17,935 nucleotides of DNA from Candidatus Geohabitans tengchongensis (lineage in GTDB: Bacteria; Sysuimicrobiota; Sysuimicrobiia; Sysuimicrobiales; Humicultoraceae). The position numbers and the translations under genes were made by a program. Below, one piece after another: positions 2 through 15,470 of the stretch (its first letter is position 1; each line of letters begins with the position of its first letter). The DNA is taken from NCBI GenBank assembly GCA_031459625.1, contig JAVKIH010000037.1, forward strand, positions 1 to 17,935. The letters run 5' to 3'. The notes under the pieces were generated by a model. The model ran no database searches and had not been told where the DNA came from. It saw only the letters and a program-made list of their open reading frames with translations.

Positions 2-2275
2 GCGCAGGTAGCCGTTGGCCCGCCGGTGAGGGAGGACCGGATCCTCGACCTGGTCGCCGTGCTGGTGGACCACTCGCTCCTGGTGGTCGAACCGGGGCGT
101 CCTGCGCCGTACCGCCTGCTGGAGACGATCCGTCAGTACGCCCAGGCCCGCCTGCTGGAGTCAGGGGAAGCCGAGGCGGTACGCGACCGGCACCTCGCCT
201 GTTACCTCGGGATCGCGGAGTGGGGGGCCCACGGGCTGGAAGGCCCCCGCGACCGGGCCCCGGTACAGGCGGTGGCGGCCCAGCACGACAACATCCGGGC
301 CGCCATGGAGTGGGCGCAGGCGCGTGGCGACGTGATCCGCGGGCTGCGTCTGGCGGTGGCCGCGGCGGGACCGATGTGGGCCGGCCACATCCACTCCACT
401 GAAGCGCGGCAGTGGCTGGAAGGCTGGCTGCAGCGAGGAGACGCCCGGGAGGTGGGCCAGCCTATTCCCGAGACGCTGCGTGCCCGGGCGCTGTACTGGG
501 CCGGCGAGCTGGCCTGGGAGGTCGGGGACAACCGCCGGGCCCAGCAGGCCCTCGAGGAGAGCAGTGCGCTCTTCCGCCGCCTCGGTGACGGTAGAGGACT
601 GGCGTCGGCCCTCAACACGCTGGCCGTGGTGTGGTACCGGACGGCGGCGTATGCAGCGGCGCGGCGGGCGCTGGAGGAGAGTGTGTCGATCGGTCGCGCG
701 CTGGCCGACCCGGGGCTCACCGCTTTCGCCCTGCTCATCCAGGGCATCGTCGCCCGCCTGGAGGGCGACTACGAGAGAGCAGAGGCGTGGGGGCGCGAGA
801 GCCTCGAGGTGGCGCGTGCGGCCGACCTCACCCGCGCCGTGGCCCTGGCGCTGGACAGCCTGGGGGTGCTGGCGGCGCAGCGCGGCGACGGGGACGCGGC
901 GGAATCGCTGGCCCAGGAGGCGGTGGCGCACTTCCGGTCGCTGGGGGACGCCTACGGCACAGCGGCCAGCCTCAACACGCTGGCGCTGGCGGCGCTGGCC
1001 CGCGGTGACACCGCGCTGGCCCGCGCGCGCAGCCTGGAGAGCCTGCCCATCTCGCGGCGCCTGGCGGCCCGGGGATCTGCCGGTCGCTCCCAGTTGACCC
1101 TGGCGCGTGCGGCCCTGCGGGAGGGCGACACCGCATCGGCCCTGACCGCCGCCCGCGAGGCCCTCGACCTCTTCCAGAAGGTGGGTGAACGGCTCGGCCT
1201 GGTCCAGTCGCTGGAGGTCCTCGGCGCCGTCGCCCTTCAAGCGGGAGGCGTCGCCGGGGCCCGGCTCCTCGGGGCAGCGGCGGCGGCGCGCGCCCGACTG
1301 GGCGCCCCACAGTCGCCCCTGGAACAGGACCACCTCGCGCGTCCGGTGCGGGCGGCGGAGGCCGCCGCGGCCCCGGGCGCACTCCAGGCCGCCCGGGCTG
1401 CGGGAGAGGGGATGACCCTCGATGCCGCGATCGAGGAGGCGAGGGCCCTGGCCCGCTCCCTGGTGCTTCCCGCCGCGGCGCCCTTCGGGCCGCAGCTGCG
1501 GGTCCGGCTCCTCGGGGGGTTCGAGGTGTGGCGGGGTGAGGAGCGCCTCTCCCCCAAGGTCTGGCGTCGCCGCCGTGACCGCCTGTTGTTCACCTACCTC
1601 CTGGTCGCACGCGAGCCGGTCCCCCGCGAGGCCCTGCTGGAGGCGCTGTGGCCCCACCTCCCTCCTGAATCCGCGCAGGCCAGCCTGGGCGTGGCCTGGT
1701 CAAACGCCAAGCGGGCGCTGGACTCCGGCGGTCCCGGGGACGCGTGCCTGGTGCTGGAGCGGGGGCGGTATGGGATCCGGCGGGGCGCGGTGGTCACAGA
1801 CGTCCAGGAGTTCGACGCTCACGTGGCGGCCGCCGCCCGGGCCCGCGACGTCCAGGCTGCCCTGCGGGCCCTCGAGACCGCCGCAGGGATCTACCGCGGA
1901 GACCTCCTGCCCGACGAGGCCAACGAGCCCTGGACGACTCTCGAACGGGAGCGGCTGCGGACCGCGTACATCGGGGTGCTGGAGCGGCTGGCGGAGGCCA
2001 GGGCCTCCCAGGGTCAGGTGGCGGAGGCCGAGGCGCACCTGCGCGAGATCCTTCGCCTCGACCCCTGGCGGGAAGAGGTCTACCGGCGGCTCATGGTGCT
2101 GCTGGCAGAGCACGGTCGGCGTGCGGAAGCGCTGCGCCTGTACCAGGAGTGCGTGGCGGCGTTGCGCCGCGAGCTGGAGGTCGGTCCGAGCGGCGAGACC
2201 GTGGCCCTCGCCGAGGCCATCGCCAGGGGAGAGCGGCCCGGCCGCCCTCGCCCACACCAGCCACCCTCGCGCTGA
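2..2275 (+). CDS. 5'-truncated large transcriptional regulator: end of an ATPase/winged-helix region, TPR repeats, then C-terminal SARP-type DNA-binding domain and BTAD
   Basis: The frame is open from position 2, so the true start is probably upstream of the window. 'LVDHSLL...YRLLETIRQYA...RHLACY' is typical of the region after the ATPase domain in AfsR/LuxR-type ATPase regulators. TPR-like helices recur ('GLASALNTLAVV', 'GTAASLNTLALA'). The C-terminus has SARP/BTAD motifs: 'LRVRLLGGFEV', 'VPREALLEALWP', 'DVQEF', 'YRGDLL', 'W...ERERLR', 'DPWREE.YRRLM', 'ELEVGPS'. Confidence 0.9.
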   Translation, partial: AQVAVGPPVREDRILDLVAVLVDHSLLVVEPGRPAPYRLLETIRQYAQARLLESGEAEAVRDRHLACYLGIAEWGAHGLEGPRDRAPVQAVAAQHDNIRAAMEWAQARGDVIRGLRLAVAAAGPMWAGHIHSTEARQWLEGWLQRGDAREVGQPIPETLRARALYWAGELAWEVGDNRRAQQALEESSALFRRLGDGRGLASALNTLAVVWYRTAAYAAARRALEESVSIGRALADPGLTAFALLIQGIVARLEGDYERAEAWGRESLEVARAADLTRAVALALDSLGVLAAQRGDGDAAESLAQEAVAHFRSLGDAYGTAASLNTLALAALARGDTALARARSLESLPISRRLAARGSAGRSQLTLARAALREGDTASALTAAREALDLFQKVGERLGLVQSLEVLGAVALQAGGVAGARLLGAAAAARARLGAPQSPLEQDHLARPVRAAEAAAAPGALQAARAAGEGMTLDAAIEEARALARSLVLPAAAPFGPQLRVRLLGGFEVWRGEERLSPKVWRRRRDRLLFTYLLVAREPVPREALLEALWPHLPPESAQASLGVAWSNAKRALDSGGPGDACLVLERGRYGIRRGAVVTDVQEFDAHVAAAARARDVQAALRALETAAGIYRGDLLPDEANEPWTTLERERLRTAYIGVLERLAEARASQGQVAEAEAHLREILRLDPWREEVYRRLMVLLAEHGRRAEALRLYQECVAALRRELEVGPSGETVALAEAIARGERPGRPRPHQPPSR

Positions 2276-2302: not shown

Positions 2303-2336
2303 CGCTTAGGGCTGCGCTAAAGGCTCCCCGTACCTT
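2303..2336 (+). promoter_or_regulatory. Direct-repeat operator plus -10 element, copy 1 (upstream of the cupin)
   Basis: CGCTTAG(2303-2309)-GGCTG-CGCTAA(2315-2320)-10 nt-TACCTT(2331-2336); cupin ATG at 2382. Confidence 0.8.
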
Positions 2337-2381
2337 TTGGCATGGAGAGCACGAGGGAGTTCGGAGATCCGGGAGGATGCC

Positions 2382-2837
2382 ATGGAACGACGGCTCTGGT
2401 TTCTCAACACCCTGGTCCACATTCGCGTGGCCGAAGCGGACGGGCAGGACGGGCTCTCCGTCCTGGAGCATCGTGCTCCCTTCGGGGACTCGCCGCCGCT
2501 GCACATCCACCACACCGAGGACGAGGTCTTCCACGTCCTCGAGGGCGAGCTCCGCCTGCGCGTGGCGGACGAGGAGCGCCGGTGTCCTCGCGGTACCATC
2601 CTCCTCGCCCCGAAGGGCGTCCCGCACACCTACCGGGTGGAGTCGCCGGCGGGGGCACGCTGGGTCACGGTGACGGCGCGCGGGGACTTTGAGCGGTTCG
2701 TCCGGGCCCTGGGCCGCCCCGCCGAGCGCGACGACCTTCCGCCGCCGGCCGGTCCCCCGTCCCCCGAGGCGGCGGAGGCGCTGGCCCAGGTGGCCCGCCG
2801 CCATGGCATCGAGCTGGTCGGTCCTCCCCTGGCGTGA
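2382..2837 (+). CDS. Cupin-domain protein (quercetinase/QueD-like monocupin), 151 aa
   Basis: GGGAGG precedes the ATG at 2382. Cupin motif 1 'PPLHIHHTEDEVFHVLEGEL' and motif 2 'PKGVPHTY' are present, plus the family-typical 'LWFLNTL' N-terminus and 'HGIELVGPPL' C-terminus. Confidence 0.9.
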   Translation: MERRLWFLNTLVHIRVAEADGQDGLSVLEHRAPFGDSPPLHIHHTEDEVFHVLEGELRLRVADEERRCPRGTILLAPKGVPHTYRVESPAGARWVTVTARGDFERFVRALGRPAERDDLPPPAGPPSPEAAEALAQVARRHGIELVGPPLA

Positions 2838-2892
2838 CGCCTGCCGCAGGGCCGTGATGGCCGAAGCGTCCACGCCGCTCCATCCCGCCTGG

Positions 2893-2927
2893 CGCTTAGG
2901 GTGGCGCTAACCGCCGTCCTCTACGCT
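2893..2927 (+). promoter_or_regulatory. Direct-repeat operator plus -10 element, copy 2 (upstream of the small ORFs)
   Basis: CGCTTAG(2893-2899)-GGTGG-CGCTAA(2905-2910)-11 nt-TACGCT(2922-2927); ATG at 2964. Confidence 0.8.
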
Positions 2928-2963
2928 CCGCATCGCCAGGGACCCCGGCGTCGGGGAGGAGAC

Positions 2964-3161
2964 ATGGAGGACCAGGGCGCGCCGATGTCGTTCGTGATCA
3001 GGCTGCAGCGGACCGGCGGCGGGTTTCGGGGCCACGTGATCGCCGTGGCAACAGGGCAAGGGCGGGTCTTCACCGACCTGGCCGAGGCGACCGCGTTCAT
3101 TGAGGCCCAGATGCGGGAGGCGCCGCCGGGCGGCCACGCCCGCCGGCCGGCATCGGACTGA
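2964..3161 (+). CDS. Small hypothetical protein, 65 aa
   Basis: GGGGAGGA lies 3 nt before the ATG at 2964, and promoter copy 2 is directly upstream. The sequence is protein-like with strands then a helix ('SFVIRLQR...FRGHVIAVATGQGRVFTDLAEATAFIEAQM'). Confidence 0.75.
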   Translation: MEDQGAPMSFVIRLQRTGGGFRGHVIAVATGQGRVFTDLAEATAFIEAQMREAPPGGHARRPASD

Positions 3162-3180
3162 CAGGCCCGGGAGGGGGCTC

Positions 3181-3303
3181 ATGGGCCCACCGTTGCGGAG
3201 AGGGGGGAGTGGGATGGACGTGGTCGTGCGGGTTGCCGGTCTGCTGCTCGTGACGCTGCTCGCCACGGGGTGCATGCCCTTCAGCCTGCCGCTGCCCTTC
3301 TGA
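3181..3303 (+). CDS. Putative micro-lipoprotein (40 aa from ATG 3181, or 29 aa from ATG 3214)
   Basis: Both ATGs have SD-like sequences (GGAGGGG and GGGGGAG). A hydrophobic stretch 'VVVRVAGLLLVTLL' ends in lipobox-like 'LATG-C', followed by only 'MPFSLPLPF' and a stop. Confidence 0.55.
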   Translation: MGPPLRRGGSGMDVVVRVAGLLLVTLLATGCMPFSLPLPF

Positions 3304-3314
3304 CGGTTCGAGCG

Positions 3315-3353
3315 CCGCCGGGCCAGCACCTGATGCTGTGCTGGTCCTGGCGG
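3315..3353. terminator. Stem-loop between convergent genes, possible bidirectional terminator
   Basis: CCGCCGGGCCAGCAC (3315-3329) pairs with GTGCTGGTCCTGGCGG (3338-3353) with one G-U pair and one bulge, around an 8-nt loop. It lies between the stops at 3303 (+) and 3392 (-). There is no U-tract. Confidence 0.5.
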
Positions 3354-3391
3354 GTCATCGCGGCGAGGCCATTCGTCCTCTCTGAGCCGCG

Positions 3392-4423
3392 CTACTGCTC
3401 GACCCGCCAGAGGCGAATGCCACCCTCGTCGTCCCCGGCGGCCAGCAGCCGGCCGTCGGGCGAAAAGGCCAGCGCGGTGATCTCCTCGGGACCGTAGAGC
3501 ACGCGGAGGAGCGCGCCCGTCCGGGCGTCCCAGAGGAGGAGTGGCCTGTAGGTGCCCCTGGGGCCCGGAGGCCGGGGCAGGTCAACCCCCGCGACGATCC
3601 CGCGCCCGCCAGTGGCGATGCGCCGCCCGTCCGGTGTGTAGGCGGCGGCCAACGCATACACGTGTGCGATGAGCCTGTGCCGCTCCCGGCCGGTCGCCAC
3701 GTCCCAGATCCGGACGGTGTTGTCCGTCGAGGCGGACAGGGCGGAGCGCCCGTCGGGAGCGAAGGCCACGTCAGTGATGGCGGCGATGTGGCCGCGGAAG
3801 ACCCGCACCTGCCGGCCGTGCACGACGTCCCAGAGACGGACCGTCTCGTCGTCAGAGAAACTCCCGGAGAGTAGGAACCGGCCGTCACGGGAGAAGGCGA
3901 GCGCGGTCACGTGGTCAGTGTGCCCCCGGAGGATCCGCACTGTCCGACCGGTGGCGGCGTTCCACAGGCGGATGGTCCGCTCTTGACCGCCCGTCGCCAC
4001 CAGGCGCCCGTCGGGAGCGTACGCCGCGGTGTTCACCTGGAAGAGCCGGAGCTGGAATGCCCGGACCTGACGCCCGGAGGCCGTCTCGACCAGCCGGGCG
4101 GCCCCGCCCCATGGGTCGGCGAAGAGGACCTGGCGACCGTCCGGTGAGAAGGCGGCATCCTCGGTGAGGCCGCGGCAGGGGCAGATCATCCAGACCTGTC
4201 GGCGACCGGCCACGTCCCAGAGGCGCACCGTGCGGTCACTACCGGTGGAGACGACCAGCCGGCCGTCGGGGGAGAAGGCCACCGAGGTCACCGCCTTCTC
4301 ATGCCTCCCCAGCACCTGCTCGTCCGTCCCTACCGTCATCTCCACAGGCCCGGCCCCCGCTGGCGGGGCGCCCAGGCTCGCCGCCAGGAGGAACGCCACA
4401 GCCACGAGCCCTCTCGTCGCCAT
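3392..4423 (-). CDS. Secreted WD40-repeat beta-propeller protein, about 7 repeats, 343 aa
   Basis: GAGGAGG precedes the ATG. Signal peptide 'MATRGLVAVAFLLAASLGAPPAGA'. Repeats such as 'GHTDHVTALAFSRDG...VRLWD', 'GHIAAITDVAFAPDG...VRIWD' and 'VTSVAFSPDG...VRLWD'. Confidence 0.93.
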   Translation of the reverse strand: MATRGLVAVAFLLAASLGAPPAGAGPVEMTVGTDEQVLGRHEKAVTSVAFSPDGRLVVSTGSDRTVRLWDVAGRRQVWMICPCRGLTEDAAFSPDGRQVLFADPWGGAARLVETASGRQVRAFQLRLFQVNTAAYAPDGRLVATGGQERTIRLWNAATGRTVRILRGHTDHVTALAFSRDGRFLLSGSFSDDETVRLWDVVHGRQVRVFRGHIAAITDVAFAPDGRSALSASTDNTVRIWDVATGRERHRLIAHVYALAAAYTPDGRRIATGGRGIVAGVDLPRPPGPRGTYRPLLLWDARTGALLRVLYGPEEITALAFSPDGRLLAAGDDEGGIRLWRVEQ

Positions 4424-4465
4424 CCTGTGCCTCCTCGGGTCCTCGAAAGCGCTCCTGCCCTGAGG

Positions 4466-4500
4466 ACGTTACGGGGTGAGGGTTAGCGGCACGCTTAGCG
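4466..4500 (-). promoter_or_regulatory. Direct-repeat operator plus -10 element, copy 3 (upstream of the WD40 gene)
   Basis: The reverse complement reads CGCTAAG(4500-4494)-CGTGC-CGCTAA(4488-4483)-11 nt-TAACGT(4471-4466); ATG at 4423. Confidence 0.8.
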
Positions 4501-4581
4501 GAGGTCAGGGGCGCGGTCAATCGGCGCGGACGGGCTGCCGCCCCTGGGGGCCGTGCAGGTCCGGCGCGGCGACCTCCCCTG

Positions 4582-4616
4582 CGCTAAGGGGTGCGCTAAC
4601 CTCTCTGCCCTAGCGT
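4582..4616 (+). promoter_or_regulatory. Direct-repeat operator plus -10 element, copy 4 (upstream of the lipoprotein operon)
   Basis: CGCTAAG(4582-4588)-GGGTG-CGCTAA(4594-4599)-11 nt-TAGCGT(4611-4616); ATG at 4675. Confidence 0.8.
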
Positions 4617-4674
4617 GCACTTCTGGAACTCCCAAGGGTTCCGATCCGGAGTGGAGTCCGGTCGCGCTCACCCG

Positions 4675-6234
4675 ATGAGACCCTTCGCGCTCCTCGCCCT
4701 GGTCGTCCTCACCGCGGCCGCCTGCCGGGGCGGGAGCCCCCCGCCGACCGGCACAGCGCCCACACCTGCCGGGCAGGAGACCCCCGCCGCCCGGGGCGGA
4801 GAGGGAACGCCCGTGAGTGCCACCCCGCCCGACCAGCGCGAGCAGGCGGTGCCCGGCCAGGGCGAGCAGGCGGTTCCGGCAGCAACACCGGTTGGCGGGG
4901 GCGGACCCGGGTCTGTCCAGGGGACGCTCGAGCCGGAGCGCACCTACGCGGTGGGCGCCTTTGGCCGCAACCGGAACGTCGAGCTGACCGTCGCCGAGTT
5001 TCGCCTGCTGGACCCCACGCGCGTGGTGTCGTCCTCCGGAGCGCACCCGGCCCGCCCCGACCTGCGGTTCGTCGTGCTGACGACCGTCTGGAAGAACCTG
5101 GTCCCGCCCAGGACTCTCGAGGTTCCCAAGCGCGGGCCGGCCGGGACGGTGAGCGGGGAGAAGGAGACCGTCGTCGCCGAGACCGCCTATGTCGTCCCCG
5201 ACCTGGTCAAGCACCTCCACCTGCTCATCGACCGGCGGTACGTCGCCCACGTCGACCCGGCCAGCGCGCGCCTCCCCGAAGCCCTGCCCATGCCCCGGCT
5301 GGTGGTGGAGCGCTACAACCAGGAGGTGCGGGGCGCGGTGGCCTTCGTCGTGCCGGCCGGTCCCTTCCAGAGCCTGACCCTCCAGTTCTACGACTTCACC
5401 CAGGGCCACATCACGGTCCCGGTCTACGGCACCCCCCCGGCGCAGGCGGACCGGCCGGTCGCCGGCCCCGCCCGCAACCAGGTGCTGGCCGCATCGGTCT
5501 ACGGCGTGCGCACTGCCGCCGAGGCCGGCACCGCGCGGGCCCCGGCGGGCAGCCGCTTCCTCCTGGTCGACGTCGGGGCGACCTCGCTGGCGCCGGGGCA
5601 GATCGCCCAGGTGGACGTGCGCCAGTTCGTCGCCCTCGTCGAGGACGGCGTCTACCTGTACCGTCCCGCTCCCGAGCTCCCGGGGCTGGCGCACCAGTTC
5701 CACGGGGTGGTGAACCTCCTGCCCGACTTCGAGCGGCGGGGCGTGCTGGCGTTCGTCGTGCCCGAGCCGACGGGGCGGCTGGAGCTGCTGGTCGCGGCGG
5801 CGCGCGTCGACCCGGTGACGCTGCTGCTCACGCCCGACGTGGCGGCGCGGGGACAGCCGCAGCCGAAGGCCACGATCCCGGACGGGGAGGTGGCGGAGGT
5901 CCTGCTGAACGGCACCGCGCTCACGGACCAGGTGGGAGAGGCGGCCGCGCCGGCGGGGCGGCGCTTCCTCGTGCTGGACCTGACGGTGGTGAACCGGAGC
6001 CGCACCCAGGGGCTTGTCGTCCAGCCGGTGCAGTTCACGGTGACGGACGGGCAGCAGCGCACGGCGCCGTCGCCGGTGACGGCGAAGCTGCCCCACGGAC
6101 TGGCGCAGGAGCGGGTCGTCCCCCCGGCCGGGCGCGGCCGGTTCGAGGTGGCCTTCGAGGTCCCCGCGGGCGCGTCGTCCCTTCGATTGGCTTACCAGGG
6201 GTTCACGAAGGTTGAGGAGGTCCCCCTGCCATGA
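4675..6234 (+). CDS. Lipoprotein with Pro/Thr-rich linker and about three DUF4352-like Ig-fold domains, 519 aa
   Basis: Signal 'MRPFALLALVVLTAAA-C'. Three units follow the pattern 'RF(V/L)(V/L)...(W/V)xN ... V/RG.V/LAFVVP', the last being 'GRRFLVLDLTVVNRS...QFTVTDG...FEVAFEVPAGASSLRLAY', which resembles DUF4352. The ORF-track start at 4615 overlaps the -10 element and is unlikely. Confidence 0.8.
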   Translation: MRPFALLALVVLTAAACRGGSPPPTGTAPTPAGQETPAARGGEGTPVSATPPDQREQAVPGQGEQAVPAATPVGGGGPGSVQGTLEPERTYAVGAFGRNRNVELTVAEFRLLDPTRVVSSSGAHPARPDLRFVVLTTVWKNLVPPRTLEVPKRGPAGTVSGEKETVVAETAYVVPDLVKHLHLLIDRRYVAHVDPASARLPEALPMPRLVVERYNQEVRGAVAFVVPAGPFQSLTLQFYDFTQGHITVPVYGTPPAQADRPVAGPARNQVLAASVYGVRTAAEAGTARAPAGSRFLLVDVGATSLAPGQIAQVDVRQFVALVEDGVYLYRPAPELPGLAHQFHGVVNLLPDFERRGVLAFVVPEPTGRLELLVAAARVDPVTLLLTPDVAARGQPQPKATIPDGEVAEVLLNGTALTDQVGEAAAPAGRRFLVLDLTVVNRSRTQGLVVQPVQFTVTDGQQRTAPSPVTAKLPHGLAQERVVPPAGRGRFEVAFEVPAGASSLRLAYQGFTKVEEVPLP

Positions 6235-9023
6235 GAGCCCGCCTCTCGATGGCCGGGTTCATCGCGGTCGGGGCCCTCTTCCTCGGCCTCTTGATCTACG
6301 CCGCCACTCTGAGTGTTCTGGCTCGATCCACCGTCCGCTGGCCTGCTGTCGGAGGTGCCGGTGCTGCAGGCGCCTGGATCGTCCTGTTGTGGCGGCGGCA
6401 CCTCTGGCGTCACGCGGCCTGGGGCGCCGTGCTCATCTTCCTGGCAACGCTGGCCGCCATGGCATGGTTCCCCGACGGACGGGCGCACGGTCTCGCACTA
6501 CTCGGAGACGCCGCAGTGATCATCTTCCCGGCGCTCATGGGCGTTGGGAGCGTGACCGCAGCGATCATGCTCCTCCGCTGGCGGAGCCCGGCCTGGCGCG
6601 TCGGTGTGCTGCTCCTGGGCGGCTACGTCGTCGGAGCTACTGCGGTTGAAGCGGCACGCGGAGGATTCGACGCGCTGCTCCGGACGCGGTCCTCCTGGTC
6701 CACGCTGCCCCTGTGGTTCCAGGGCGCTGTGCTCGGTCTCCTTGCCCTGCTCCCGGCGGGCATCGTGGCAGGGGCGGTCGATGCCATTCGGGGTGCGAGG
6801 CGCAGTCCAGCGGTCCTGAAGTCCCTCTCGCTCTCCCTGGTGCTGCTCATCGCACTGCCGGCTGTCTATCAACCGCCGTGGACCGCACCGGTCGGTTCAA
6901 CCCGTGGGTCGGGCGAGTCCCCACCGTCCCCACCCCCCATGCCGAGCCCGACGGGCGGTGCGGTCAAGATGACGCCGATACCCTGGCCTTCTCCCGAAGG
7001 TTCAGCGGCCGCCCTGCAGGAGTACCGCGCAGCACTCGACCGGTTGAAGCATCAGGTGGATCGTTCGGTCTTCGATGTCGGCGCGCTGCAGGGGCGGCTC
7101 GGCCGCGATGTCAAGGCCATGCTGGGCTTCGTGCGGGAGGAGATCCGACTGGAGCCGTACGCCGGCGTCCTCCGGGGTGCCCGCGGCGCCCTGCTGGCCA
7201 GGGGCGGAAACGCCGCGGATCGGGCCCTCCTCCTGGCCGAGCTCCTCCGGCGCGCAGGCTACCAGGTGCGCTTTGCCGAGGGGACGCTGAGCCGGAACCA
7301 GGCCGAGGTCCTGGTGCGGTCGGCCCTGCGACGTCCCCGGACGGGGGCCGACACGCCCTTGCACCAGGAGATCCTCCGTCGGGCGGCGGCTCATTTCCTC
7401 GTCCTCGGCGATGCTCTCTACGGCGCTGGCCACCGGCCTTCGACGCAACGCACACCGCGATGGGACCACGCGGTCAGGGCCGCCCAGGACCACGTGTGGG
7501 TGCAGGTCGCCGCAGGGGACCGGTGGATGGACCTGGACCCCGCCTCCCCGGATGGGGCGCCGCTCACCCGGGCTCGCCGCGTGGGGGACGTCCCTGACCT
7601 CCGTTTCCATCGTGTCACGCTGCGGCTGGAGGTCCAGGTGGTGGAAGGCGATCGCACGCTCAGGCACCCCGTGCTCCTCTATGAGGGCCGTGCAGCGGAT
7701 CTGGTGGACGTCCCCCTGGGCATCTTCTTCGACGTGCAGGGTGAGATGGCGACCGCCGTGCTGGTGGTCGGTGGCGAACTGCTGGCCGGCCCGCCCTTCC
7801 GCATCTCCAAGTCCGCGGCCGCCGGAACCGGCGCGATCCTCCCGCTGCCGGGCACCCCCAAGGGGGGAGGCGCCATCGATGCCCTGACGGGGGCGTGGCT
7901 GACGGTCGTGACGGACACCCCCGAGGGCTCGGCGTCAGCGACCTACACGATCTTCGAGCAGGGCCCTTCGGGCAGCACGAGCGCATCGGCGGAGGATGCC
8001 CTCGGGGCCGTCCTGGGGATCGGTGTCATCACCGGGGAGATGCCCGGCATGCTGCTGGCTGCGGTCCTGGCCGACACTGACGACCCGCTGAGTCGCCCGG
8101 GGATCACGCGGTTCCTCGCGCTCCGCGCCTTCACCTACGGTGTGTTGCGCGGGGCGGTCGATGGCACCGCGGCCGAGGATCTCCCGCTGCGGTATGTCGA
8201 CGCGCCCAACGTGTTCATCGCTGAGGTACGGTCCCACGGGCCGGCGCGGGATGCGCGTGTCCAGCTCAGCTTCGACCTGACCCGGAAAGCCTATCGAACG
8301 CTCCGCGCGCCGGAAGATCCGCTGGCTGGCTACGGTGAGTTCTACGACACCCTGGCGCACGGCATGCTCGACCACCTGGTGGAGCGTGTCACGTTGGGAG
8401 CCGACTTCTCGGACCGAAGCGTAGGCGCGCTGTTCGAGCAGGCCACCGACCAGGGCATCCCAGTTAAGGCCCTGCTGCAGCCCACCGATCCTCTGCCGGC
8501 GGCGCTGGGTGGCGGGGGGATTCGCCGCCTCACCCAGGGGCGGGAAGCGGGACGAGCCGTCGTCCTGCCCGAGGCGCTCCCCCGCGGGTGGAGCCTGGCC
8601 GATCTGGGCTGGTGGGAGGTGGACCAGCGGACAGGGTGGGCGACAGATGTCACGGCCAGCGGCCGACATCAGTCGACCGTGGAACGCTCAGTCCAGGAGA
8701 CCGATACTCGGAAGAAGTCGGCCCTGGTCTGTGTCCAGACCCTCCGAATCGCTGTCAATGTCGTGATCCCCACGCTGACCCGGCTCGGTGGTTTGCCCCC
8801 GCAGTTTGTGGAGTTCCTCGAGGAGACCCGCCTTGACGACGCCCTGGAAAAGGTCGCCGAGGGCCTGTGCACGAGGTTCGGGCCGGTGCCCCGCGACATC
8901 CCTCCCCCCCCAAAGTGGACCCCCTTCCCTCCGGCCCCACGCCGTATGCCTAACCCGGGTTCGAACCCCTTCAAGAACCCCCCCGCTGTCCGCTGGCCTC
9001 CGGGGGCCCCGCGGAAGCGATGA
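6231..9023 (+). CDS. Multi-pass membrane protein with a large soluble transglutaminase-like domain (catalytic Cys replaced by Ala), 930 aa
   Basis: ATGA overlap with the upstream stop. About 7 hydrophobic segments lie in the first ~215 aa, followed by a Pro-rich linker. Transglutaminase-like core: 'FVREEIRLEPYAGVLRGARGALLARGGNAADRALLLAELLRRAGYQVRF' and 'DHVWVQV...WMDLDPA'. Confidence 0.8.
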   Translation: MRARLSMAGFIAVGALFLGLLIYAATLSVLARSTVRWPAVGGAGAAGAWIVLLWRRHLWRHAAWGAVLIFLATLAAMAWFPDGRAHGLALLGDAAVIIFPALMGVGSVTAAIMLLRWRSPAWRVGVLLLGGYVVGATAVEAARGGFDALLRTRSSWSTLPLWFQGAVLGLLALLPAGIVAGAVDAIRGARRSPAVLKSLSLSLVLLIALPAVYQPPWTAPVGSTRGSGESPPSPPPMPSPTGGAVKMTPIPWPSPEGSAAALQEYRAALDRLKHQVDRSVFDVGALQGRLGRDVKAMLGFVREEIRLEPYAGVLRGARGALLARGGNAADRALLLAELLRRAGYQVRFAEGTLSRNQAEVLVRSALRRPRTGADTPLHQEILRRAAAHFLVLGDALYGAGHRPSTQRTPRWDHAVRAAQDHVWVQVAAGDRWMDLDPASPDGAPLTRARRVGDVPDLRFHRVTLRLEVQVVEGDRTLRHPVLLYEGRAADLVDVPLGIFFDVQGEMATAVLVVGGELLAGPPFRISKSAAAGTGAILPLPGTPKGGGAIDALTGAWLTVVTDTPEGSASATYTIFEQGPSGSTSASAEDALGAVLGIGVITGEMPGMLLAAVLADTDDPLSRPGITRFLALRAFTYGVLRGAVDGTAAEDLPLRYVDAPNVFIAEVRSHGPARDARVQLSFDLTRKAYRTLRAPEDPLAGYGEFYDTLAHGMLDHLVERVTLGADFSDRSVGALFEQATDQGIPVKALLQPTDPLPAALGGGGIRRLTQGREAGRAVVLPEALPRGWSLADLGWWEVDQRTGWATDVTASGRHQSTVERSVQETDTRKKSALVCVQTLRIAVNVVIPTLTRLGGLPPQFVEFLEETRLDDALEKVAEGLCTRFGPVPRDIPPPPKWTPFPPAPRRMPNPGSNPFKNPPAVRWPPGAPRKR

Positions 9024-12000
9024 GCGGGACGACCGCTGCGCGACTCGTCGCGGCCCTGCTGGTCGGTGGGCTCCTGGCGGGCTGCGTCCGGGGGCCAGAC
9101 GCCGGCCCCACTGCCACCCCCGGTCCGATGGCAGCTTCGAGTCCACTCGCGGCGTCCACCCCCGCGACCGTTCTCCCTTCTCCCGCTCCGTCCACCCCCG
9201 AAACCTCACCCTCGCCGGGACTGGAGGCGACGCCCGCCCCATCCCTGCCCGGCCGGCCCGGGGACGTCGTCGCCACGCCAGCCGCTCAGGTCGAACAACC
9301 CCCTTCACCGGGCCGCACGACCGGCGTGCAGCCGATCGACGCCGTCCTGGCGCCTGCGCTCACCGGCACGGGCGACCCCCAACAGCCGGCCACGGAGTTT
9401 CCAGAAGATGTCAGTGCCATCCACCTCGTGGTGCGCGGGCCGGCCAACGCCAGCCTGGTGGCCAAGTGGGTCGCCGTCCAAGCCGAGGGCTATCCGGCGA
9501 ACCAGGAGGTTGAGCAGGACCGCGTCGCCCTGGGCGCCGACGGGAAGGGCACGGCGACGCTGGCGGCCAGGCCGCAGGCGGTCCTCCGCCCCGGCGAGTA
9601 CCGGGTGGACCTCACCGTAAACGGCGCCCCCGGCCCGTCCCTCCCGTTCCGCATCGTCCCCATCCTCCCCGCGGCCGCCGCCTTCGAGGAGAGCGACCGC
9701 CTCTTCGGCCGCAACGTCGCCGCCGCCGCGCTGGGGGGGACGGTGGTGAGCGTCCCGCCCAACTCGGGGGCGCCGGCCGAGTACCTGATCGACGGCGGCA
9801 GCGAGGTGGTGAGCCGGCTGCAGCAGCTCCGCCCCTGGGTCACGCGGGACGCCACGTTCCCGCAGGAGATCGTCCTGTCCTTCCACGGGGGGCGCCGGGC
9901 CACGGTGGCCGCCGTCCTCGTCGACACCGACTCCGACAACCGGTACACCGGGTACCTGGATGCGATGCCGCGCCACGTGGAGGTGTGGGTCTCCACGACC
10001 GGCGCCACGGATGGCTTCACCAGGGTCGCGGCCGCGCGTCTGCCCCGTCGGGCGGGCCGGCACCTCATCCCGTTCGACCCCGTGCCGGCGACGCACCTCA
10101 AGCTCCGCATCCTCTCCAACCACGGCGGGACCCGCACCGAGGTCGTCGAGGTGAAGGTCCTGGAAGACCCCTCCGCCCCCAGCATCCTGGCCGACCGGCC
10201 GGCGAACCTGGTCCTGCCCGCCCTGGGGGGCACGGTCGTACGCGTGCCGGACTGGACGGGCACGCCGGTGGGCAACCTCTTCGACGGCCGCACGGGAGAC
10301 CACGGGTGGTATACGCAGGAGCGCCTGCCACGGGAGATCGTGCTGGCCTTCCGCGACCGCCAGGAGGCCTACATCGACCGTCTCGTCCTGAACCCCTCCA
10401 CGGACCTGGGGCAGGAGACCTGGCTCAAGCGTCTGTCGGTGCAGGTCTCGACCGAGAGTCCTTTCGAGGGCTGGCAGGAGGTGGGCCGGTTCACGCTGGC
10501 CCGAGAGGCCCGCGACCAGGTCTTCCCAGTCGGGCGGCGGGCCCGGTTCCTCAAGCTGCGCCTGCTCGAGAACCACGGCGGGCGGAACACGAGCCTGGGG
10601 GAGGTGCAGGTCCTCGAGGGGCAGGCGGCGGGCTACCGGTCGCTGCTGCTCGAACGCCCGCCCCGCCTCCTCGCCCGCGCGGCGCAGCCGGGACAGGGAG
10701 CCGCCACGGCCACCGCCGGTGCGGAGACGCTCGAGGGCGAGCCCAACGACACTGCGGCGCAGGCCGTCCCCCTGCCGCTCGGGCGGCGGGTGCGCGGCAC
10801 CATCGCGCCCACCGGTGACGTGGACCACTTCGCGCTCACGGTCCCCCCGCCGGGACCCGCCCTGCTCACCCTGGAGCTGGGCGGGCACCCGTCCATCCGC
10901 ACCTCCCTCGAGCTGCTCGACCGCGCGGGGCGCCCGGTGCGACGCTTCGGGCCGCAGCAGGCCGGGCGCCGCGCCACCGCCTTCACCTGGCTGGTCGAGC
11001 CCGGGGAGTACGTCGTCCGTCTGGCCGAGCCGCCGCTCTCCATCGTGCTGGCCTTCGACACGAGCGGCAGCATGGGCGGGGCCATCAGGGACCTGGAGGA
11101 GGCGGTGACCGCCTACGTCGACGCGGTGCAGCCGACCGAGCAGGTGGCCCTGATCCGCTTCGGGGCGGGCAGTCCCAACGAGATCGTCCTCCTGACCCCA
11201 CGCTTCACGAACGACCGCACCGTCCTCCGCCGGGCGCTGGCCGGCCAGTTCAAGGCTGTGGGCGGGACGCCGCTGTACGACGCGGTGGCGCACGGCATCG
11301 CGCTGCTCAAGGCCACGGAGGGGAACCGGGCCGTCGTGGTGATGACCGACGGCGAGGACAGCGGGAGCAGGCTCGACCTGCGGGGGTTCTGGGCGCTGCT
11401 GGAAGAGACGCGCGTGCCGGTGTACGCCATCCTCCTGGGCAACCGCCTGCAGCAGTACCAGCCGCGCCTGGGGACGAGCGTCCTCGGCCTCTTCGCCCAC
11501 CTGTCGGCGGCCACCCAGGCGCGGGCCACCTTTACCCCCGACTCCGCGGCGCTGCGCGGGCTCTACCAGCAGATCGCCTCGGAGCTGCGCACCCCCGTCA
11601 CGTACACGCTGCGGGCCACGGCGAGCCCGGGCCCGGGGACGGTGTACGTCGACACCGGCGGCGAGCCCGTGGGCGCTCCGCCGCAGGTGGAGCTGATCCT
11701 CGACGCCTCCGGGTCGATGAAGCGCCGCATCGACGGGCGCCCGATGATCGACATCGCCAGGGATACCCTGGCCCAGGTCGTCAAGGCGCTGCCCGACCAG
11801 GTGCACGTCGGGCTGCGCGTCTACGGGCACCGCATCCGCGAGGGCCGGCCGGGCGACTGCCAGGACTCGGAGCTGGTGGTGCCGATCGCCCCGCTGGACC
11901 GCACCGCCATGCTGGCGGCCATCCGGCGGGTGCAGGCCCTGGGCACGACGCCGATCGCCTACTCGCTGCGGCAGGTGGCGCGGGACTTCGGCACCCGGTC

Positions 12001-12463
12001 GGGGGAGCGGTTGGTCATCCTGGTCACCGACGGCCAGGAGGAGTGCGGCGGGAGCCCGGCGGCGGTGGTCTCCGAGCTGCTGGCCGCCGGCGTGACGGTC
12101 CGGCTGAACATCGTGGGGTTCGCCCTGGCCGACCGGCGGACGCGCCAGGAGATGGCCCGGGTGGCCGCCCTCACGGGCGGGGCCTTCTTCGACGCCCGCG
12201 ACGGGCGCGCGCTGCGGACGGCCATCGACCGGTCGCTGGCCTTCCCCTTCGAGGTGCTGGAGGCGACGGGACGGCGGGTGGCCGGCGGGATGACGGGGAC
12301 GGCGGTGAGCGTGCCGGAGGGCGTCTACACGGTGGTGCTGCGCCCCGCGGGGCCGCCGGTGACGGTCCGCGACGTGCGGGTGCGCTACGGGGCGGTCACC
12401 CGGGTGGTGCTGACGAAGGACGGCGGCGAGATCGGGTTTCGGGTCGTGGGGCCGTCGCCGTGA
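9020..12463 (+). CDS. Large lipoprotein: Pro-rich linker, Ig-like domain, 2 discoidin/galactose-binding-like domains, PPC-like domain, 2 vWA domains, C-terminal beta domain; 1147 aa
   Basis: ATGA overlap; lipobox 'LLAG-C'. Duplicated unit 'N....ALGGTVV...L.DG...W...P.EIVL.F...LKLR.L.NHGG..T...EV.VLE'. 'EGEPNDTAAQA...GDVDHF' is PPC-like. MIDAS motifs: DTSGS/GGTP/TDG and DASGS/GTTP/TDG. Confidence 0.9.
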   Translation: MSGTTAARLVAALLVGGLLAGCVRGPDAGPTATPGPMAASSPLAASTPATVLPSPAPSTPETSPSPGLEATPAPSLPGRPGDVVATPAAQVEQPPSPGRTTGVQPIDAVLAPALTGTGDPQQPATEFPEDVSAIHLVVRGPANASLVAKWVAVQAEGYPANQEVEQDRVALGADGKGTATLAARPQAVLRPGEYRVDLTVNGAPGPSLPFRIVPILPAAAAFEESDRLFGRNVAAAALGGTVVSVPPNSGAPAEYLIDGGSEVVSRLQQLRPWVTRDATFPQEIVLSFHGGRRATVAAVLVDTDSDNRYTGYLDAMPRHVEVWVSTTGATDGFTRVAAARLPRRAGRHLIPFDPVPATHLKLRILSNHGGTRTEVVEVKVLEDPSAPSILADRPANLVLPALGGTVVRVPDWTGTPVGNLFDGRTGDHGWYTQERLPREIVLAFRDRQEAYIDRLVLNPSTDLGQETWLKRLSVQVSTESPFEGWQEVGRFTLAREARDQVFPVGRRARFLKLRLLENHGGRNTSLGEVQVLEGQAAGYRSLLLERPPRLLARAAQPGQGAATATAGAETLEGEPNDTAAQAVPLPLGRRVRGTIAPTGDVDHFALTVPPPGPALLTLELGGHPSIRTSLELLDRAGRPVRRFGPQQAGRRATAFTWLVEPGEYVVRLAEPPLSIVLAFDTSGSMGGAIRDLEEAVTAYVDAVQPTEQVALIRFGAGSPNEIVLLTPRFTNDRTVLRRALAGQFKAVGGTPLYDAVAHGIALLKATEGNRAVVVMTDGEDSGSRLDLRGFWALLEETRVPVYAILLGNRLQQYQPRLGTSVLGLFAHLSAATQARATFTPDSAALRGLYQQIASELRTPVTYTLRATASPGPGTVYVDTGGEPVGAPPQVELILDASGSMKRRIDGRPMIDIARDTLAQVVKALPDQVHVGLRVYGHRIREGRPGDCQDSELVVPIAPLDRTAMLAAIRRVQALGTTPIAYSLRQVARDFGTRSGERLVILVTDGQEECGGSPAAVVSELLAAGVTVRLNIVGFALADRRTRQEMARVAALTGGAFFDARDGRALRTAIDRSLAFPFEVLEATGRRVAGGMTGTAVSVPEGVYTVVLRPAGPPVTVRDVRVRYGAVTRVVLTKDGGEIGFRVVGPSP

Positions 12464-12492
12464 CCCCTGATGCCGCAAGGGGGTGAAGCCGC

Positions 12493-14581
12493 GTGGTCCA
12501 AGGCCGATCCATCCTAGTCCTCATCCTGGTGGCGATGCTGGCACTGGGCGGGTGTCGCGCCACCGGCCGTGCTCGGGTCGGGAGCCCTGCTGCGGGCACA
12601 GGCTCCGCGTCGGAGCCGACCGGAGGCACTCCTGCAGACCCCCTGCCCGCACCCCTCTCCCTGCCTGCAGGATCCCCGGACGAGGCTGTGTCGGCGCTGG
12701 TGGGGCGCATCCTGGGCGGGGGTCAGGAGGGGCTCTCCGCGCTGCTCACCGCCTTCCAGGCGGCCGGCATTGCTGTGCGCGGGCCGGGAGGCGGCCTGGC
12801 GGTGCAGCCTGCGGACGGAGGGCAGGGGCTGGGGGTCAGCGCCTGGGAGGCCAGGTTCATGGCGGCATTGACGAGGAAGGACCGCGCGCTCCTGGTACTG
12901 CTCACCAAGGTGCAGGAGGTGCTCGTGCGGGCCGTGCCCGAGCTGCAGGGCATTCGTATCGCCCAGCACATCCTGGACGGGATCCACGCCCATGCGGACG
13001 GGCAGCACCCGGCGATGCGGGCCTGGGCGCGGCTCATCGTGGAACTGGGGCGCCAGCGGCAGGTGGGCGGTCCGCAGGACCTCCTGGGAGGGGTGGATCC
13101 CGAGGCGGTGCGTCTGGACGCGGTCCAGCTGTCCCTCGTCACCCTGCGCCTCATCGGAGATCTGGAAGTCATCCAGCGGCGGGCGAGCGTTCCCCGCGGG
13201 AACGTCGTGGCCGACGCCGGTCAGCGCGCCCGACGGGCCAGCGCCCTGGCCGGGTGGTTGGCGCCGCCGCCGGCGTTCGCGGCCGCGGCACCCTGCGCCG
13301 ACGACGATCCGGTCATCAGCCGGGAGCAGGTGAGCGCCAGCGGGTTCGACGTGCTGAGGCAGAAGTTCCGGGACGTGCTGAGGGGAATGGCCCCGAACGG
13401 TTGAGAAGAGCGGTCAGATCGCAACGCGCTTACCGGACTCTGGCGCTCGTCCTGGCCGCCCTGCGCATCGAGGTGGCCATGGAGCCCCCGGGTCCGCCGC
13501 TGGTGCGGACGAGGACCACCGACCCGGGCGAGGGGCGGGACATCAGAGCCAGGGTGTACCTCGACCCGAAGAGATTGGCTTGGTCGGAGTGCGCCCGGGC
13601 GGTGCTGGAAGCGCTGGGCCTTCGGCTGAACGTGGGACGCCCTGCGGCCGGCGGCGTCGCCGGGGTCCCCGTCACCTGGCGCCTGGCGGCGGGCGAGGAC
13701 ATCCTCATGCTCCAGTGTTGCTCGCCCGACATCACCGACCAGGATGGCGCGTCGGTCTTCGCCGTGGTGGGGAAGCCTCAGGACAGGCCTCTGCCCGACA
13801 CGGCCCAACGGGTCAGCAAGCAGGGAGCGGTGGCGGTGGGGTTCGACCTGCGGCCGTACACCCTCCTCGGTGGACAGGCCCCCAGCGACCCCTCCCTACT
13901 GGAAGGGTGGCTGCAGGAGGCGTCCTTCCGCTATGAGACCGTCTACCCTTTCGAGGTGGTGGATTGGGAGGGTGGACGTCCGTGGACGGGGACCATCACG
14001 TACACGCGGACAGTGCGCCAGCAGCGGTCCGAAGGTTCCGTGGAAGAACAGACCCAGAGCACGTTGCGCATCGTGGTGGATCTGGGCGACACGGTCAGCG
14101 AAGCCGGCGATCCGGCAACGGGCATTTACGTGGCCCAGCTCAGGGCTACCGCGCGAGGTGAGTTTTCCGAGCAGTCGAGGTCTCAGGGTTGGAAGTGGGA
14201 CACCTGCGCAGGCAGACGGGTGCGACTGACTGGACGAGTGAGGGTCGGCTGGTCGGCTCAGGCTCGGGACGCGCACGTGTCACCATCCACCTCACACCCG
14301 GGAACTACTCTGTCGCTGTCGCCTCCGAAGAGACCTGCGAGGCGGAGGGACAGCTGGTCAGCCGACAGGCCATTTGCCTAGGTGGCGGTCACGTGTCCTA
14401 CCTGTCGGGGTCACGCGGAGGGGTACGCCTCAGCACGATTCTCGGTATCCCTGTGACCATTGCTTCTCAACTCAAGGCCCGCGACGCGCTGGCGGGAACG
14501 TGGAACCGGACCGTTGAGGGGGGTCCGGCTACCGCGACCGTCACCGAAACCCTCGAGTGGGATCTGAGGCGTCGTCGGTAG
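12493..14581 (+). pseudogene. Frameshifted lipoprotein gene, about 695-700 aa if repaired; true pseudogene or sequencing indels
   Basis: Signal 'MVQGRSILVLILVAMLALGG-C'. Protein-like sequence runs in the 12493 frame to about 13385, continues in the 12483-ORF frame ('LALVLAALRIEVAMEPP...') from about 13440 to 14225, then in the 14189-ORF frame ('TDWTSEGRL...TLEWDLRRRR*') to 14581. Confidence 0.75.
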
Positions 14582-14659
14582 GGCACACGGCCAGGTGGTG
14601 GTGACGCCGTCGATCCCTGTGGCCGGTCGACGTCTTGGAGACGGAGAGGAGGGGAGGTC

Positions 14660-15139
14660 GTGAGAACGACGTGCACGTGCGGATGCCCGGGCATCCTGAG
14701 GACACGGCGGAGGGCGAGCGGTGGCATCGTGACACGGTTCTTGCTCCTCGCTCTGGTGGCGGTTCTGGCGGCAGTGCCGGCGGCAGCGTTCGCGGCCGCC
14801 AACGCGGCCGCCCTCCTGGGCACCTGGGTGCAGGATGACATGGGGCCCGTGCTCACCTACCGACGCGTGTACCGGTTCAACCGCGACGGGACGTACGAGT
14901 TCCTCTTCACGGTGCGGAACACAGGATCGACCGCCCAGAGGGTGCTGGTCCGGGAACGCGGCCGCTACGCGCTACGAGGGGATGTCCTGGTGATCACCCC
15001 GCAGCTCGGGCAGGTCCGGTGGCAGCGTGGTGTGGCCAGGTCGTTTCCCTGGCGGGTGGAGCGGGATCGCGCCGGGGGGGACCTCCGGCTGGTCCTGGTC
15101 CTCCCCGACGGCATCCTGGACGTCTTCTATCGCCCGTAG
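14660..15139 (+). CDS. Small secreted hypothetical protein, possibly a lipocalin-like beta barrel
   Basis: A strong SD (GGAGGGGAGG) precedes GTG 14660; an alternative GTG is at 14729. Signal 'TRFLLLALVAVLAAVPAAAFA', then 'LLGTW' and strands 'YRFNRDGTYEF...ERGRYALRGDVLVITP'. Confidence 0.75.
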   Translation: MRTTCTCGCPGILRTRRRASGGIVTRFLLLALVAVLAAVPAAAFAAANAAALLGTWVQDDMGPVLTYRRVYRFNRDGTYEFLFTVRNTGSTAQRVLVRERGRYALRGDVLVITPQLGQVRWQRGVARSFPWRVERDRAGGDLRLVLVLPDGILDVFYRP

Positions 15140-15197
15140 TCATGCCATGGAGCACCGCAGGTGCGCGCCGCGCTGGCCCGCACCGGGCAGCGGATCA

Positions 15198-15224
15198 GGG
15201 TGAGCCAACAGCGGGAGCTCACCC
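15198..15224. terminator. Possible hairpin downstream of the operon
   Basis: GGGTGAGC (15198-15205) / GCTCACCC (15217-15224): an 8-bp stem with an 11-nt loop and no U-tract. Confidence 0.3.
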
Positions 15225-15241
15225 CTCGACGGCCTGGGGTT

Positions 15242-15422
15242 CAAGTACGCCTTCATCGCCTTCTCCGCCGCCTGCTGGGCATGAAATGTCGCGTCTTTGG
15301 TGAGGGGCGGTTCGACGCTGAGGTCGACTCGGGCGCCTGCGAGGTCGGCGCGTGCCCGCACCGGCCACCCTCGCGTCTCCGCCACGAGTTCCGGATCATG
15401 CGGCATGGAGGAGCCGGCCCTC
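15242..15422 (-). pseudogene. Remnant of an MNT-HEPN toxin-antitoxin pair: last codons of the nucleotidyltransferase and first ~55 codons of HEPN
   Basis: From ATG 15406: 'MPHDPELVAETRGW...ARADL..A...PPLTKDATFHAQQAAEKAMKAYL', the classic HEPN N-terminal motif. Similarity is lost after AYL. An overlapping frame gives 'EGRLLHAA*' (15422-15396), typical of MNT C-termini. Confidence 0.8.
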
Positions 15423-15435
15423 GGGGGTCTCGAGG

Positions 15436-15470
15436 CGCTAAGCGATGCGCTAAGCCGGCCGGGGTACCAT
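15436..15470 (+). promoter_or_regulatory. Direct-repeat operator plus -10 element, copy 5 (upstream of the PrsW-like/protease operon)
   Basis: CGCTAAG(15436-15442)-CGATG-CGCTAA(15448-15453)-11 nt-TACCAT(15465-15470); ATG at 15511. Confidence 0.8.

Follow-up and report, generated by a model that had tools for sequence, protein, structure and literature searches.

A 12-bp-phased repeat box as the most likely operator of a SARP-type regulator with a C-terminal DNA-binding module in a hot-spring bacterium

The 17,935-bp contig JAVKIH010000037.1 of Candidatus Geohabitans tengchongensis, analyzed here at its full length and referred to as the window, opens within the gene of a SARP-type regulator and carries five copies of a repeat box, CGCTWAG-N5-CGCTAA, each followed by a hexamer of the form TANNNT. 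From the sequences and a structural model, we consider this box most likely to be the binding site of the adjoining regulator, which would activate seven promoters, five of them in the window, through 12-bp-phased heptamers that replace the −35 element. The window is the whole of contig C31 of genome G000, which comprises 2.76 Mb in 47 contigs at 73% GC. The initial annotation, made from the window alone, had proposed a local regulon of five promoters activated by this regulator. Its central idea, activator-type promoters served by the adjoining SARP protein, is supported in that it agrees with every computational test run, and several of its details had to be revised.

Exactly five matches to CGCTWAG-N5-CGCTAA are present in the window, at 2303-2320 (+), 2893-2910 (+), 4483-4500 (−), 4582-4599 (+), and 15436-15453 (+), just where the initial annotation had placed them, and 0/200 dinucleotide-preserving shuffles of the window gave any match. 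Reading the DNA confirmed the five −10-like hexamers that had been named, at 10 nucleotides (nt) behind the second repeat of box 1 and 11 nt behind that of the other four (Table 1). With genes called by codon-position GC and Pfam, all five boxes are intergenic and oriented to a gene, and the gaps of 37 to 59 nt between hexamer and start codon agree with the 35 to 60 nt or so that had been claimed. The second repeat starts 12 nt after the first, giving a period of 12 bp. Written as heptamers, the two repeats stand head to tail on the same strand (CGCTWAG followed by CGCTAAN) at 7/7 sites in the genome and at 10/10 strict sites in the orthologous loci described below. The second heptamer ends 9 to 10 nt before TANNNT (10-11 nt when counted from the hexamer CGCTAA), the −10 itself being assumed. 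The N5 spacer falls where a −35 element is expected and, as had been pointed out, does not resemble the −35 consensus. A −35-like hexamer and a TG-extended −10 are absent at all five box sites, and no sigma-70-like −35/−10 pair was detected anywhere in the window.

The words that make up the box had been presumed rare, and so they are: counted on both strands, the 2.76-Mb genome contains 27 copies of CGCTWAG and 63 of CGCTAA. For the complete 18-mer, there are six exact matches genome-wide, no match with one mismatch, and 21 with two. The exact matches are the five window boxes and C1:330634, where the box is followed after 11 nt by TAGGGT and then by a Shine-Dalgarno sequence and the gene for a secreted protein. 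Among the 21 two-mismatch sites, only C15:27361 (−) has TANNNT at N10/11. It reads TGCTAAG-N5-TGCTAA-N10-TACCTT, in which each repeat begins with T in place of C, is intergenic, and precedes the genes for a membrane-anchored cupredoxin and a double cupredoxin across a long leader of about 78 nt; a third repeat, CGCTAAA, lies 13 nt upstream of it (G000 C15:27328-27385, L008). The total set is seven sites, all of them intergenic and facing a gene, with TANNNT at 10/11 nt and 10 to 85 nt to the start codon, and the motif is not common at random or coding positions of the genome. Since two of the seven sites (C1 and C15) lie elsewhere, the regulon is not purely local: the five clustered copies of the initial annotation stand, but its membership grows by two. 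The secreted protein on C1 (G000 C1:330400-331434; L001, L007) has a paralogue encoded upstream with the same C-terminal motif (...DFNAPITI.LP.C), and the box precedes the second copy only. For the C15 operon, assignment as a quinol-cupredoxin module was considered and rejected, as the next downstream gene is something else.

The full pattern including the −10 element has seven matches in this genome and none in 40 relatives, and a control pattern read backwards gave no match. A relaxed core of the pattern has eight copies in G000, and each of the 93 other genomes from the phylum has one copy at most. Across all species genomes, the full pattern was found in at least 120 stretches; the 80 loci listed have a single match each, mostly in low-GC genomes, which we read as chance background.

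A metagenome scan queried with a close relative of the regulator, taken from the protein search, identified three contigs (L053, L054, and L055) whose regulators are 78 to 83% identical to that of the window. The order regulator, cupin, 65-residue protein, WD40 protein is kept in all three. They carry four, three, and three strict boxes, respectively, each in the orthologous intergenic position, plus one variant each. In L054 and L055, the variant precedes the gene for the 65-residue protein and has CGCCAA as its second repeat; in L053, it precedes the WD40 gene, and its first repeat is degenerate. A scan of homologous loci had been suggested as a test of the regulon, and its outcome is favorable: box and regulator recur together in 3/3 syntenic contigs, with the box as a conserved island. 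In all four box-bearing loci, the first box follows the end of the regulator gene within 28 to 60 nt. Most of the transglutaminase-VWA operon is missing from L053, where the 29-residue lipoprotein gene and unkA each have their own box; as both genes lie inside operons in the window, this shows modular reuse of the box. Between the 65-residue and WD40 genes of L053 (L053:14072-14668), we also observed the remnant of a second SARP copy in which the recognition-helix motif ASLNVAWSN abuts the BTAD part as the result of an internal deletion.

For these loci and the genome, a search with GCTWA fixed in both repeats and a period of 11 to 13 bp allowed yielded 17 strict sites. The invariance of GCTWA among them is by construction, because the search pattern fixes it. 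At the positions that were free to vary, the 12-bp period was found in 17/17 sites, as were G at position 7 and A, not T, in the second repeat; C was found at position 1 in 15/17 and at position 13 in 16/17, and TANNNT stood at N10/11 in 14/17. When the four loci were aligned, 74 of the 96 columns of box plus −10 were invariant, versus 94/387 among the remaining intergenic columns; within the three closest loci, these figures were 85/96 and 189/387. Box 2 together with its −10 was invariant in 23 of 24 columns in the four-locus alignment. The four syntenic loci show that the box is under selection. A de novo search for repeat boxes in 61 metagenome loci (L053-L113), made with a strict filter on mostly short contigs, found only L055 again, and we therefore do not generalize to distant regulators.

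The window contains the C-terminal part of the regulator, in which Pfam detected TPR repeats, including a TPR_MalT-like region, and a BTAD domain at residues 599-740 (97 bits); positions 22-269 of the NCBIfam AfsR model align to residues 492-744 of the same open reading frame (ORF). The AfsR equivalog NF053617 gave 101.7 bits over the SARP part only, far under its curated cut-off of 1430 bits, and the regulator is therefore not an AfsR orthologue. Using phmmer against PDB sequences, the last 277 residues matched AfsR (8hvr_I; E 6.7e-12, residues 10-254, 245 residues) and also EmbR (2fez). An AlphaFold model of these 277 residues (pLDDT 86.8, pTM 0.82) was closest in fold to AfsR, in its chains from two transcription-initiation complexes (8k60 and 8hvr; TM-score 0.73-0.81), and to EmbR, with overall TM-scores of 0.70 to 0.81 over 251 to 261 columns. 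Pfam Trans_reg_C had no match in the regulator at E ≤ 10, so the assignment of the winged helix rests on the AfsR/EmbR alignments and the fold. Judged by these alignments and the modeled fold, the C-terminal 277 residues of the regulator are a SARP fold, that is, an OmpR-type winged helix followed by a BTA/BTAD helical domain. Its recognition helix is ASLGVAWSNAKRAL, and the core SL-VAWSN-[KR]RAL is kept in every orthologue with boxes. By our count in the alignment, the regulator has V and N where AfsR has its base-contacting T88 and R92.

A full-length protein of 1047 residues from the same 90% cluster (P0125) has an AAA_16/NB-ARC P-loop NTPase at residues 8-139, then TPR repeats, then BTAD at 889-1030, which puts the DNA-binding module last. 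That NTPase and TPR repeats form part of one polypeptide, as they do in large SARPs of the AfsR type, is seen in both P0125 and P0003, which match AAA_16, AAA_22, NB-ARC, and TPR_12. The NTPase-TPR-SARP order was also found in 4/4 distant full-coverage homologues scanned, one of them named Chloroflexus sp., and the two scanned from Streptomyces/Kitasatospora are arranged as AfsR is, with BTAD at about 114-245. One cluster-mate of the regulator carries the NCBI label 'Armatimonadota bacterium', and the runs that hold the locus are labeled hot springs metagenome. The SARP/BTAD regulator that the initial annotation saw at the start of the window is thus borne out by sequence and fold, but with its module at the C-terminus: small, medium, and large SARPs all have an N-terminal SARP module in the available part of PMC10972967, a placement that the regulator does not share. 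The phrases 'C-terminal SARP' and 'TPR-BTAD' gave no match in the literature searched, whose coverage was incomplete, a weak sign that the architecture is undescribed.

According to the available text of PMC10936776, SARPs bind direct repeats with a spacing of 11 or 22 bp, of which the 3′ repeat lies 8 bp from the −10 element; in the afs box, two 11-bp repeats span −40 to −19, centered at −29.5, over a poor −35; and two SARP protomers side by side give sigma region 4 an alternative docking point. Heptamer repeats with 4- to 15-nt spacers, and 10-bp units for PimR, are described in PMC10972967, again as far as its available text goes. With the −10 and the transcription start assumed, the geometry of the box would fit this published SARP geometry except for the 12-bp period. 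On the same assumption, the SARP-like operator of the initial annotation would have its repeats over −35 at a fixed distance from −10; their period is 12 bp and not the classical 11 bp.

AfsR from Streptomyces coelicolor (structures 8HVR, 8K60, and 8JKE), whose SARP module is the best sequence and fold match to the regulator, also shares the STAND/NOD NTPase and TPR repeats with it. The afs box at the afsS promoter likewise consists of two direct repeats over −35, with the center near −29.5 and the downstream repeat at about −29, the transcription start here being assumed, and afsS may be loosely resembled by a small gene with its own box adjoining the regulator. AfsR differs in its order, SARP-NOD-TPR versus NTPase-TPR-SARP here, and the afs box in its period of 11 bp versus 12 bp and in the sequence of its repeats, which are unrelated. 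Its host is an actinomycete, whereas that of the window is not, and the targets here are envelope proteins. The cluster-situated small SARPs ActII-ORF4, DnrI, and RedD provide a parallel, in that a single activator gene within a cluster acts on several of the cluster's promoters by way of heptameric direct repeats over −35 (PMC10972967, in its available part). They are about 300 residues long, consist of the SARP module alone, and use 11-bp units in antibiotic pathways, whereas Pfam and NCBIfam scans found no biosynthetic genes in the window. MalT/LAL-type STAND regulators combine an N-terminal P-loop NTPase, a helical repeat sensor, and a C-terminal LuxR-type helix-turn-helix; their parts come in the order seen here, with the LuxR-type domain at the C-terminus and not a SARP module.

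In the mechanism that we propose, two copies of the regulator would sit head to tail on the two heptamers, in place of −35, and recruit RNA polymerase, with the TANNNT hexamers as the putative −10 elements. If transcription starts about 7 nt past the hexamer, the box at N11 sites would extend from about −41 to −18, with its center near −29.5 and its downstream repeat at −29; at N10 sites it would lie one base closer (−28). The regulator would bind as a tandem dimer and may act by the 'sigma adaptation' known from AfsR, and its N-terminal STAND NTPase and TPR repeats would gate this activity in response to some signal. The wider proposal, that a permuted large SARP (STAND NTPase-TPR-SARP) from an uncultured hot-spring lineage outside the actinomycetes carries out AfsR-like sigma adaptation on 12-bp-phased heptamers, with a complete regulon of envelope proteins, proteases, and cupredoxins, is one toward which we lean only slightly.

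Several observations weigh against or qualify the proposed mechanism. The family relative G007 has a regulator that is 91% identical to that of the window, yet there is no box in its 3.2 Mb (97% complete). The 12-bp period of all sites departs from the 11/22-bp rule for SARPs. Because the whole cluster is syntenic, its synteny is confounded with the co-occurrence of box and regulator, and the four loci with boxes do not test the binder independently. The genome has other possible binders, namely SARP/BTAD proteins on C8, C34, and C6 and three OmpR-type regulators. In run X4, which is labeled metatranscriptomic, the locus is one 14.5-kb contig of flat, even depth like that of the DNA runs. The regulator gene is itself split across contigs. 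Its NTPase part lies on C6, the beginning of which encodes residues of about 80 to 229; relative to G007, 278 nt with the start codon and Walker A are missing there. A longer form also occurs, and either of the two may be the one linked to the window cluster.

As to the split gene, a single double-depth unitig of 1003 nt spans C6:1-411, a stretch of 182 bases, and C31:1-410. The deleted form is represented by a 90-nt unitig (depth 42/38/32) in three DNA runs, which also contain a 377-nt unitig of the longer form (49/45/25). Two forms of the regulator at similar depth probably explain why many assemblies break inside the gene. As to G007, the regulator gene lies on a 5,071-bp contig (L036, G007:C4), and its DNA resembles the window only up to position 2298, which is five bases short of box 1; a fragment of a Mutator-family transposase (L036 1-330) starts just past the regulator stop, where box 1 would be. 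Fragments like the 159-residue, VWA, and cupin genes were found at G007 C1:184-204 kb, a stretch with no box and no half-site. In another genome, G061, the SARP module is 65% identical and the gene is truncated by the contig end.

The best-surviving alternative, which we hold to be improbable, is that the box is a real activator site over −35 that is bound by another tandem winged-helix protein, either of the OmpR/PhoB type or another SARP/BTAD protein, and that the adjoining regulator does something else. PhoB/OmpR-family regulators also bind in tandem, through winged helices, to direct repeats that replace −35 at a fixed distance from −10, as in pho-box-type promoters; they have a receiver domain in place of BTAD, STAND, and TPR. 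The other possible binders named above, among them three classical Trans_reg_C proteins, would be the candidates, and the two boxes far from the regulator (C1 and C15) as well as the box-free G007 with its retained regulator could be explained in this way. Pfam found no receiver-domain response regulator gene of the PhoB/OmpR type in the window. A search for a repeat box near the full-length paralogue on C8 gave nothing convincing (identical 5-6-mers, 10-12 nt apart). This alternative is hard to reconcile with the short distance from the regulator gene to the first box in 4/4 box loci and with the recognition helices of the other SARP/BTAD proteins in the genome, which differ from that of the regulator. 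It also leaves the phylum-wide distribution unaccounted for, as the 93 other genomes surely have OmpR-type regulators and have at most one core match each.

We give still less credit to the possibility that the box is a repression operator, at which either the adjoining regulator or another protein, seated on the repeats (−41 to −18), would block RNA polymerase at otherwise active promoters. The site does overlap the core promoter, where repressors bind too. The promoters look too weak alone for this, because the five sites have no −35-like hexamer and no TG-extended −10, and the SARP/BTAD module is known, in the available part of PMC10936776, for activation, with contacts to both sigma region 4 and the core enzyme. 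Finally, it is very improbable that the motif, short, repeated, and lineage-specific as it is, represents a dispersed repeat or a bipartite promoter recognized by an alternative sigma factor, given that there are only seven copies with the fixed intergenic placement described above, that no terminal repeats or longer shared flanks were found around the boxes, that no Rfam family matched in the window, where a generic repeat search found coding repeats only, and that a 12-bp tandem would not fit known sigma −35/−10 spacing.

If the adjoining SARP-type regulator is the activator, the genes it serves mostly encode exported, lipid-anchored, or membrane proteins. In the window, these are the WD40 propeller, the DUF4352 lipoprotein, the transglutaminase-like membrane protein, the double-VWA lipoprotein, and the PrsW and trypsin-like proteases; outside it, they are the cupredoxins (C15) and the secreted protein (C1). 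Two small cytoplasmic products, the cupin and the 65-residue protein, are served as well. As the products are mostly exported or membrane proteins, the predicted output of the regulon is likely a change of the cell envelope. The features of the window are collected in Table 1.

Table 1. Predicted boxes and genes of the window. Box coordinates include the −10-like hexamer; N10 and N11 denote the spacing in nt between the second repeat and the hexamer, and gaps are counted between the hexamer and the start codon.
Feature	Coordinates	Strand	Remarks
Box 1 (CGCTTAG-GGCTG-CGCTAA), N10, TACCTT	2303..2336	+	putative promoter of the cupin gene (start codon 2382, gap 46 nt); kept in L053, L054, and L055
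Box 2, N11, TACGCT	2893..2927	+	putative promoter of the gene for the 65-residue protein (start codon 2964, gap 37 nt)
Box 3 (CGCTAAG-CGTGC-CGCTAA), N11, TAACGT	4466..4500	−	putative promoter of the WD40 gene (start codon 4423, gap 43 nt)
Box 4, N11, TAGCGT	4582..4616	+	putative promoter of the long operon (start codon 4675, gap 59 nt)
Box 5 (CGCTAAG-CGATG-CGCTAA), N11, TACCAT	15436..15470	+	putative promoter of the PrsW-protease operon (start codon 15511, gap 41 nt)
Regulator gene, final 757 codons (contig end truncates the 5′ end)	2..2275	+	TPR repeats, then SARP module at about 492-744
Cupin_2 protein, 151 residues, cytoplasmic	2382..2837	+	Pfam; 87-95% identical in three orthologous loci
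Small conserved cytoplasmic protein, 65 residues, no family	2964..3161	+	homologues in orthologous loci
Putative lipoprotein ORF, 29 residues, lipobox LLATGC	3214..3303	+	probably co-transcribed with the gene for the 65-residue protein
Secreted WD40 beta-propeller, 343 residues	3392..4423	−	Pfam WD40; signal peptide-like N-terminus
DUF4352 lipoprotein, start chosen at ATG 4675, lipobox AAAC	4675..6234	+	Pfam
Polytopic membrane protein, transglutaminase-like core, 930 residues, 8 transmembrane-like segments	6231..9023	+	Pfam Transglut_core
Lipoprotein, two VWA domains and a Sad1/UNC-like domain, 1147 residues	9020..12463	+	domain profile matches
unkA, lipoprotein without known family, 303 residues, lipobox	12493..13404	+	codon-position GC; tblastn in L053
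unkB, about 326 residues, TTG start overlaps unkA stop	13400..14381	+	codon-position GC; tblastn
Secreted protein, 159 residues, no family, no own box	14660..15139	+	signal-sequence reading
PrsW-family intramembrane protease, 473 residues, 7 transmembrane-like segments	15511..16932	+	Pfam, NCBIfam
Secreted trypsin-like serine protease, 3′ end open (runs off contig), start overlaps PrsW stop	16929..17935	+	

The long operon comprises the genes for the DUF4352 lipoprotein, the transglutaminase-like protein, and the double-VWA lipoprotein, followed by unkA and unkB. A 632-residue ORF at 12483-14381 was rejected as a single gene, since codon-position GC and tblastn show unkA and then unkB in another frame. 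Nearly all products of the window have a signal peptide, a lipobox, or membrane segments. Pfam and NCBIfam gave no family for the 65-residue protein, the 159-residue protein, unkA, unkB, or the C1 protein, and an Atlas match for unkA scored 0.77, too low to be used. The 65-residue protein has 14 representatives at E ≤ 1e-3 among 1.84 billion proteins. Thirteen of these are short (60-86 residues), with the remaining match, of 1132 residues, a probable repeat artefact, and the conserved stretch of this very small family is FVIRLQR..GG.RG.V.AV.TG....F.DL..A.AFIE. The homologue of the 29-residue ORF in L053 is 69% identical; because this copy has its own box, the ORF is probably a real mini-lipoprotein gene. 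The GC content is 0.67 to 0.71 in the transglutaminase-like gene and around the 159-residue gene (6000-9000 and 13500-15000), compared to 0.72 to 0.78 elsewhere.

SARPs have been studied almost only as activators of antibiotic pathways in Streptomyces, where their DNA-binding module is N-terminal. In this hot-spring bacterium, which is not an actinobacterium, a SARP module forms the C-terminal part of a STAND switch, with its predicted operator, spacing rules, and full list of targets readable from the sequence. The value of the finding is moderate, as the kind of element is already known. It nevertheless offers a small, defined system, with a 24-bp site, a 277-residue domain, and seven promoters, in which one can ask whether sigma adaptation occurs outside the actinomycetes, whether a 12-bp phase is tolerated, and what the targets of such regulators are. 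If our interpretation is correct, the locus would serve to test what holds for the many 'ATPase/SARP' proteins, unstudied and about 1000 to 1100 residues long, in metagenomes and Chloroflexus, and SARP-type promoter takeover would be an ancient, general bacterial mechanism and not a speciality of antibiotic clusters.

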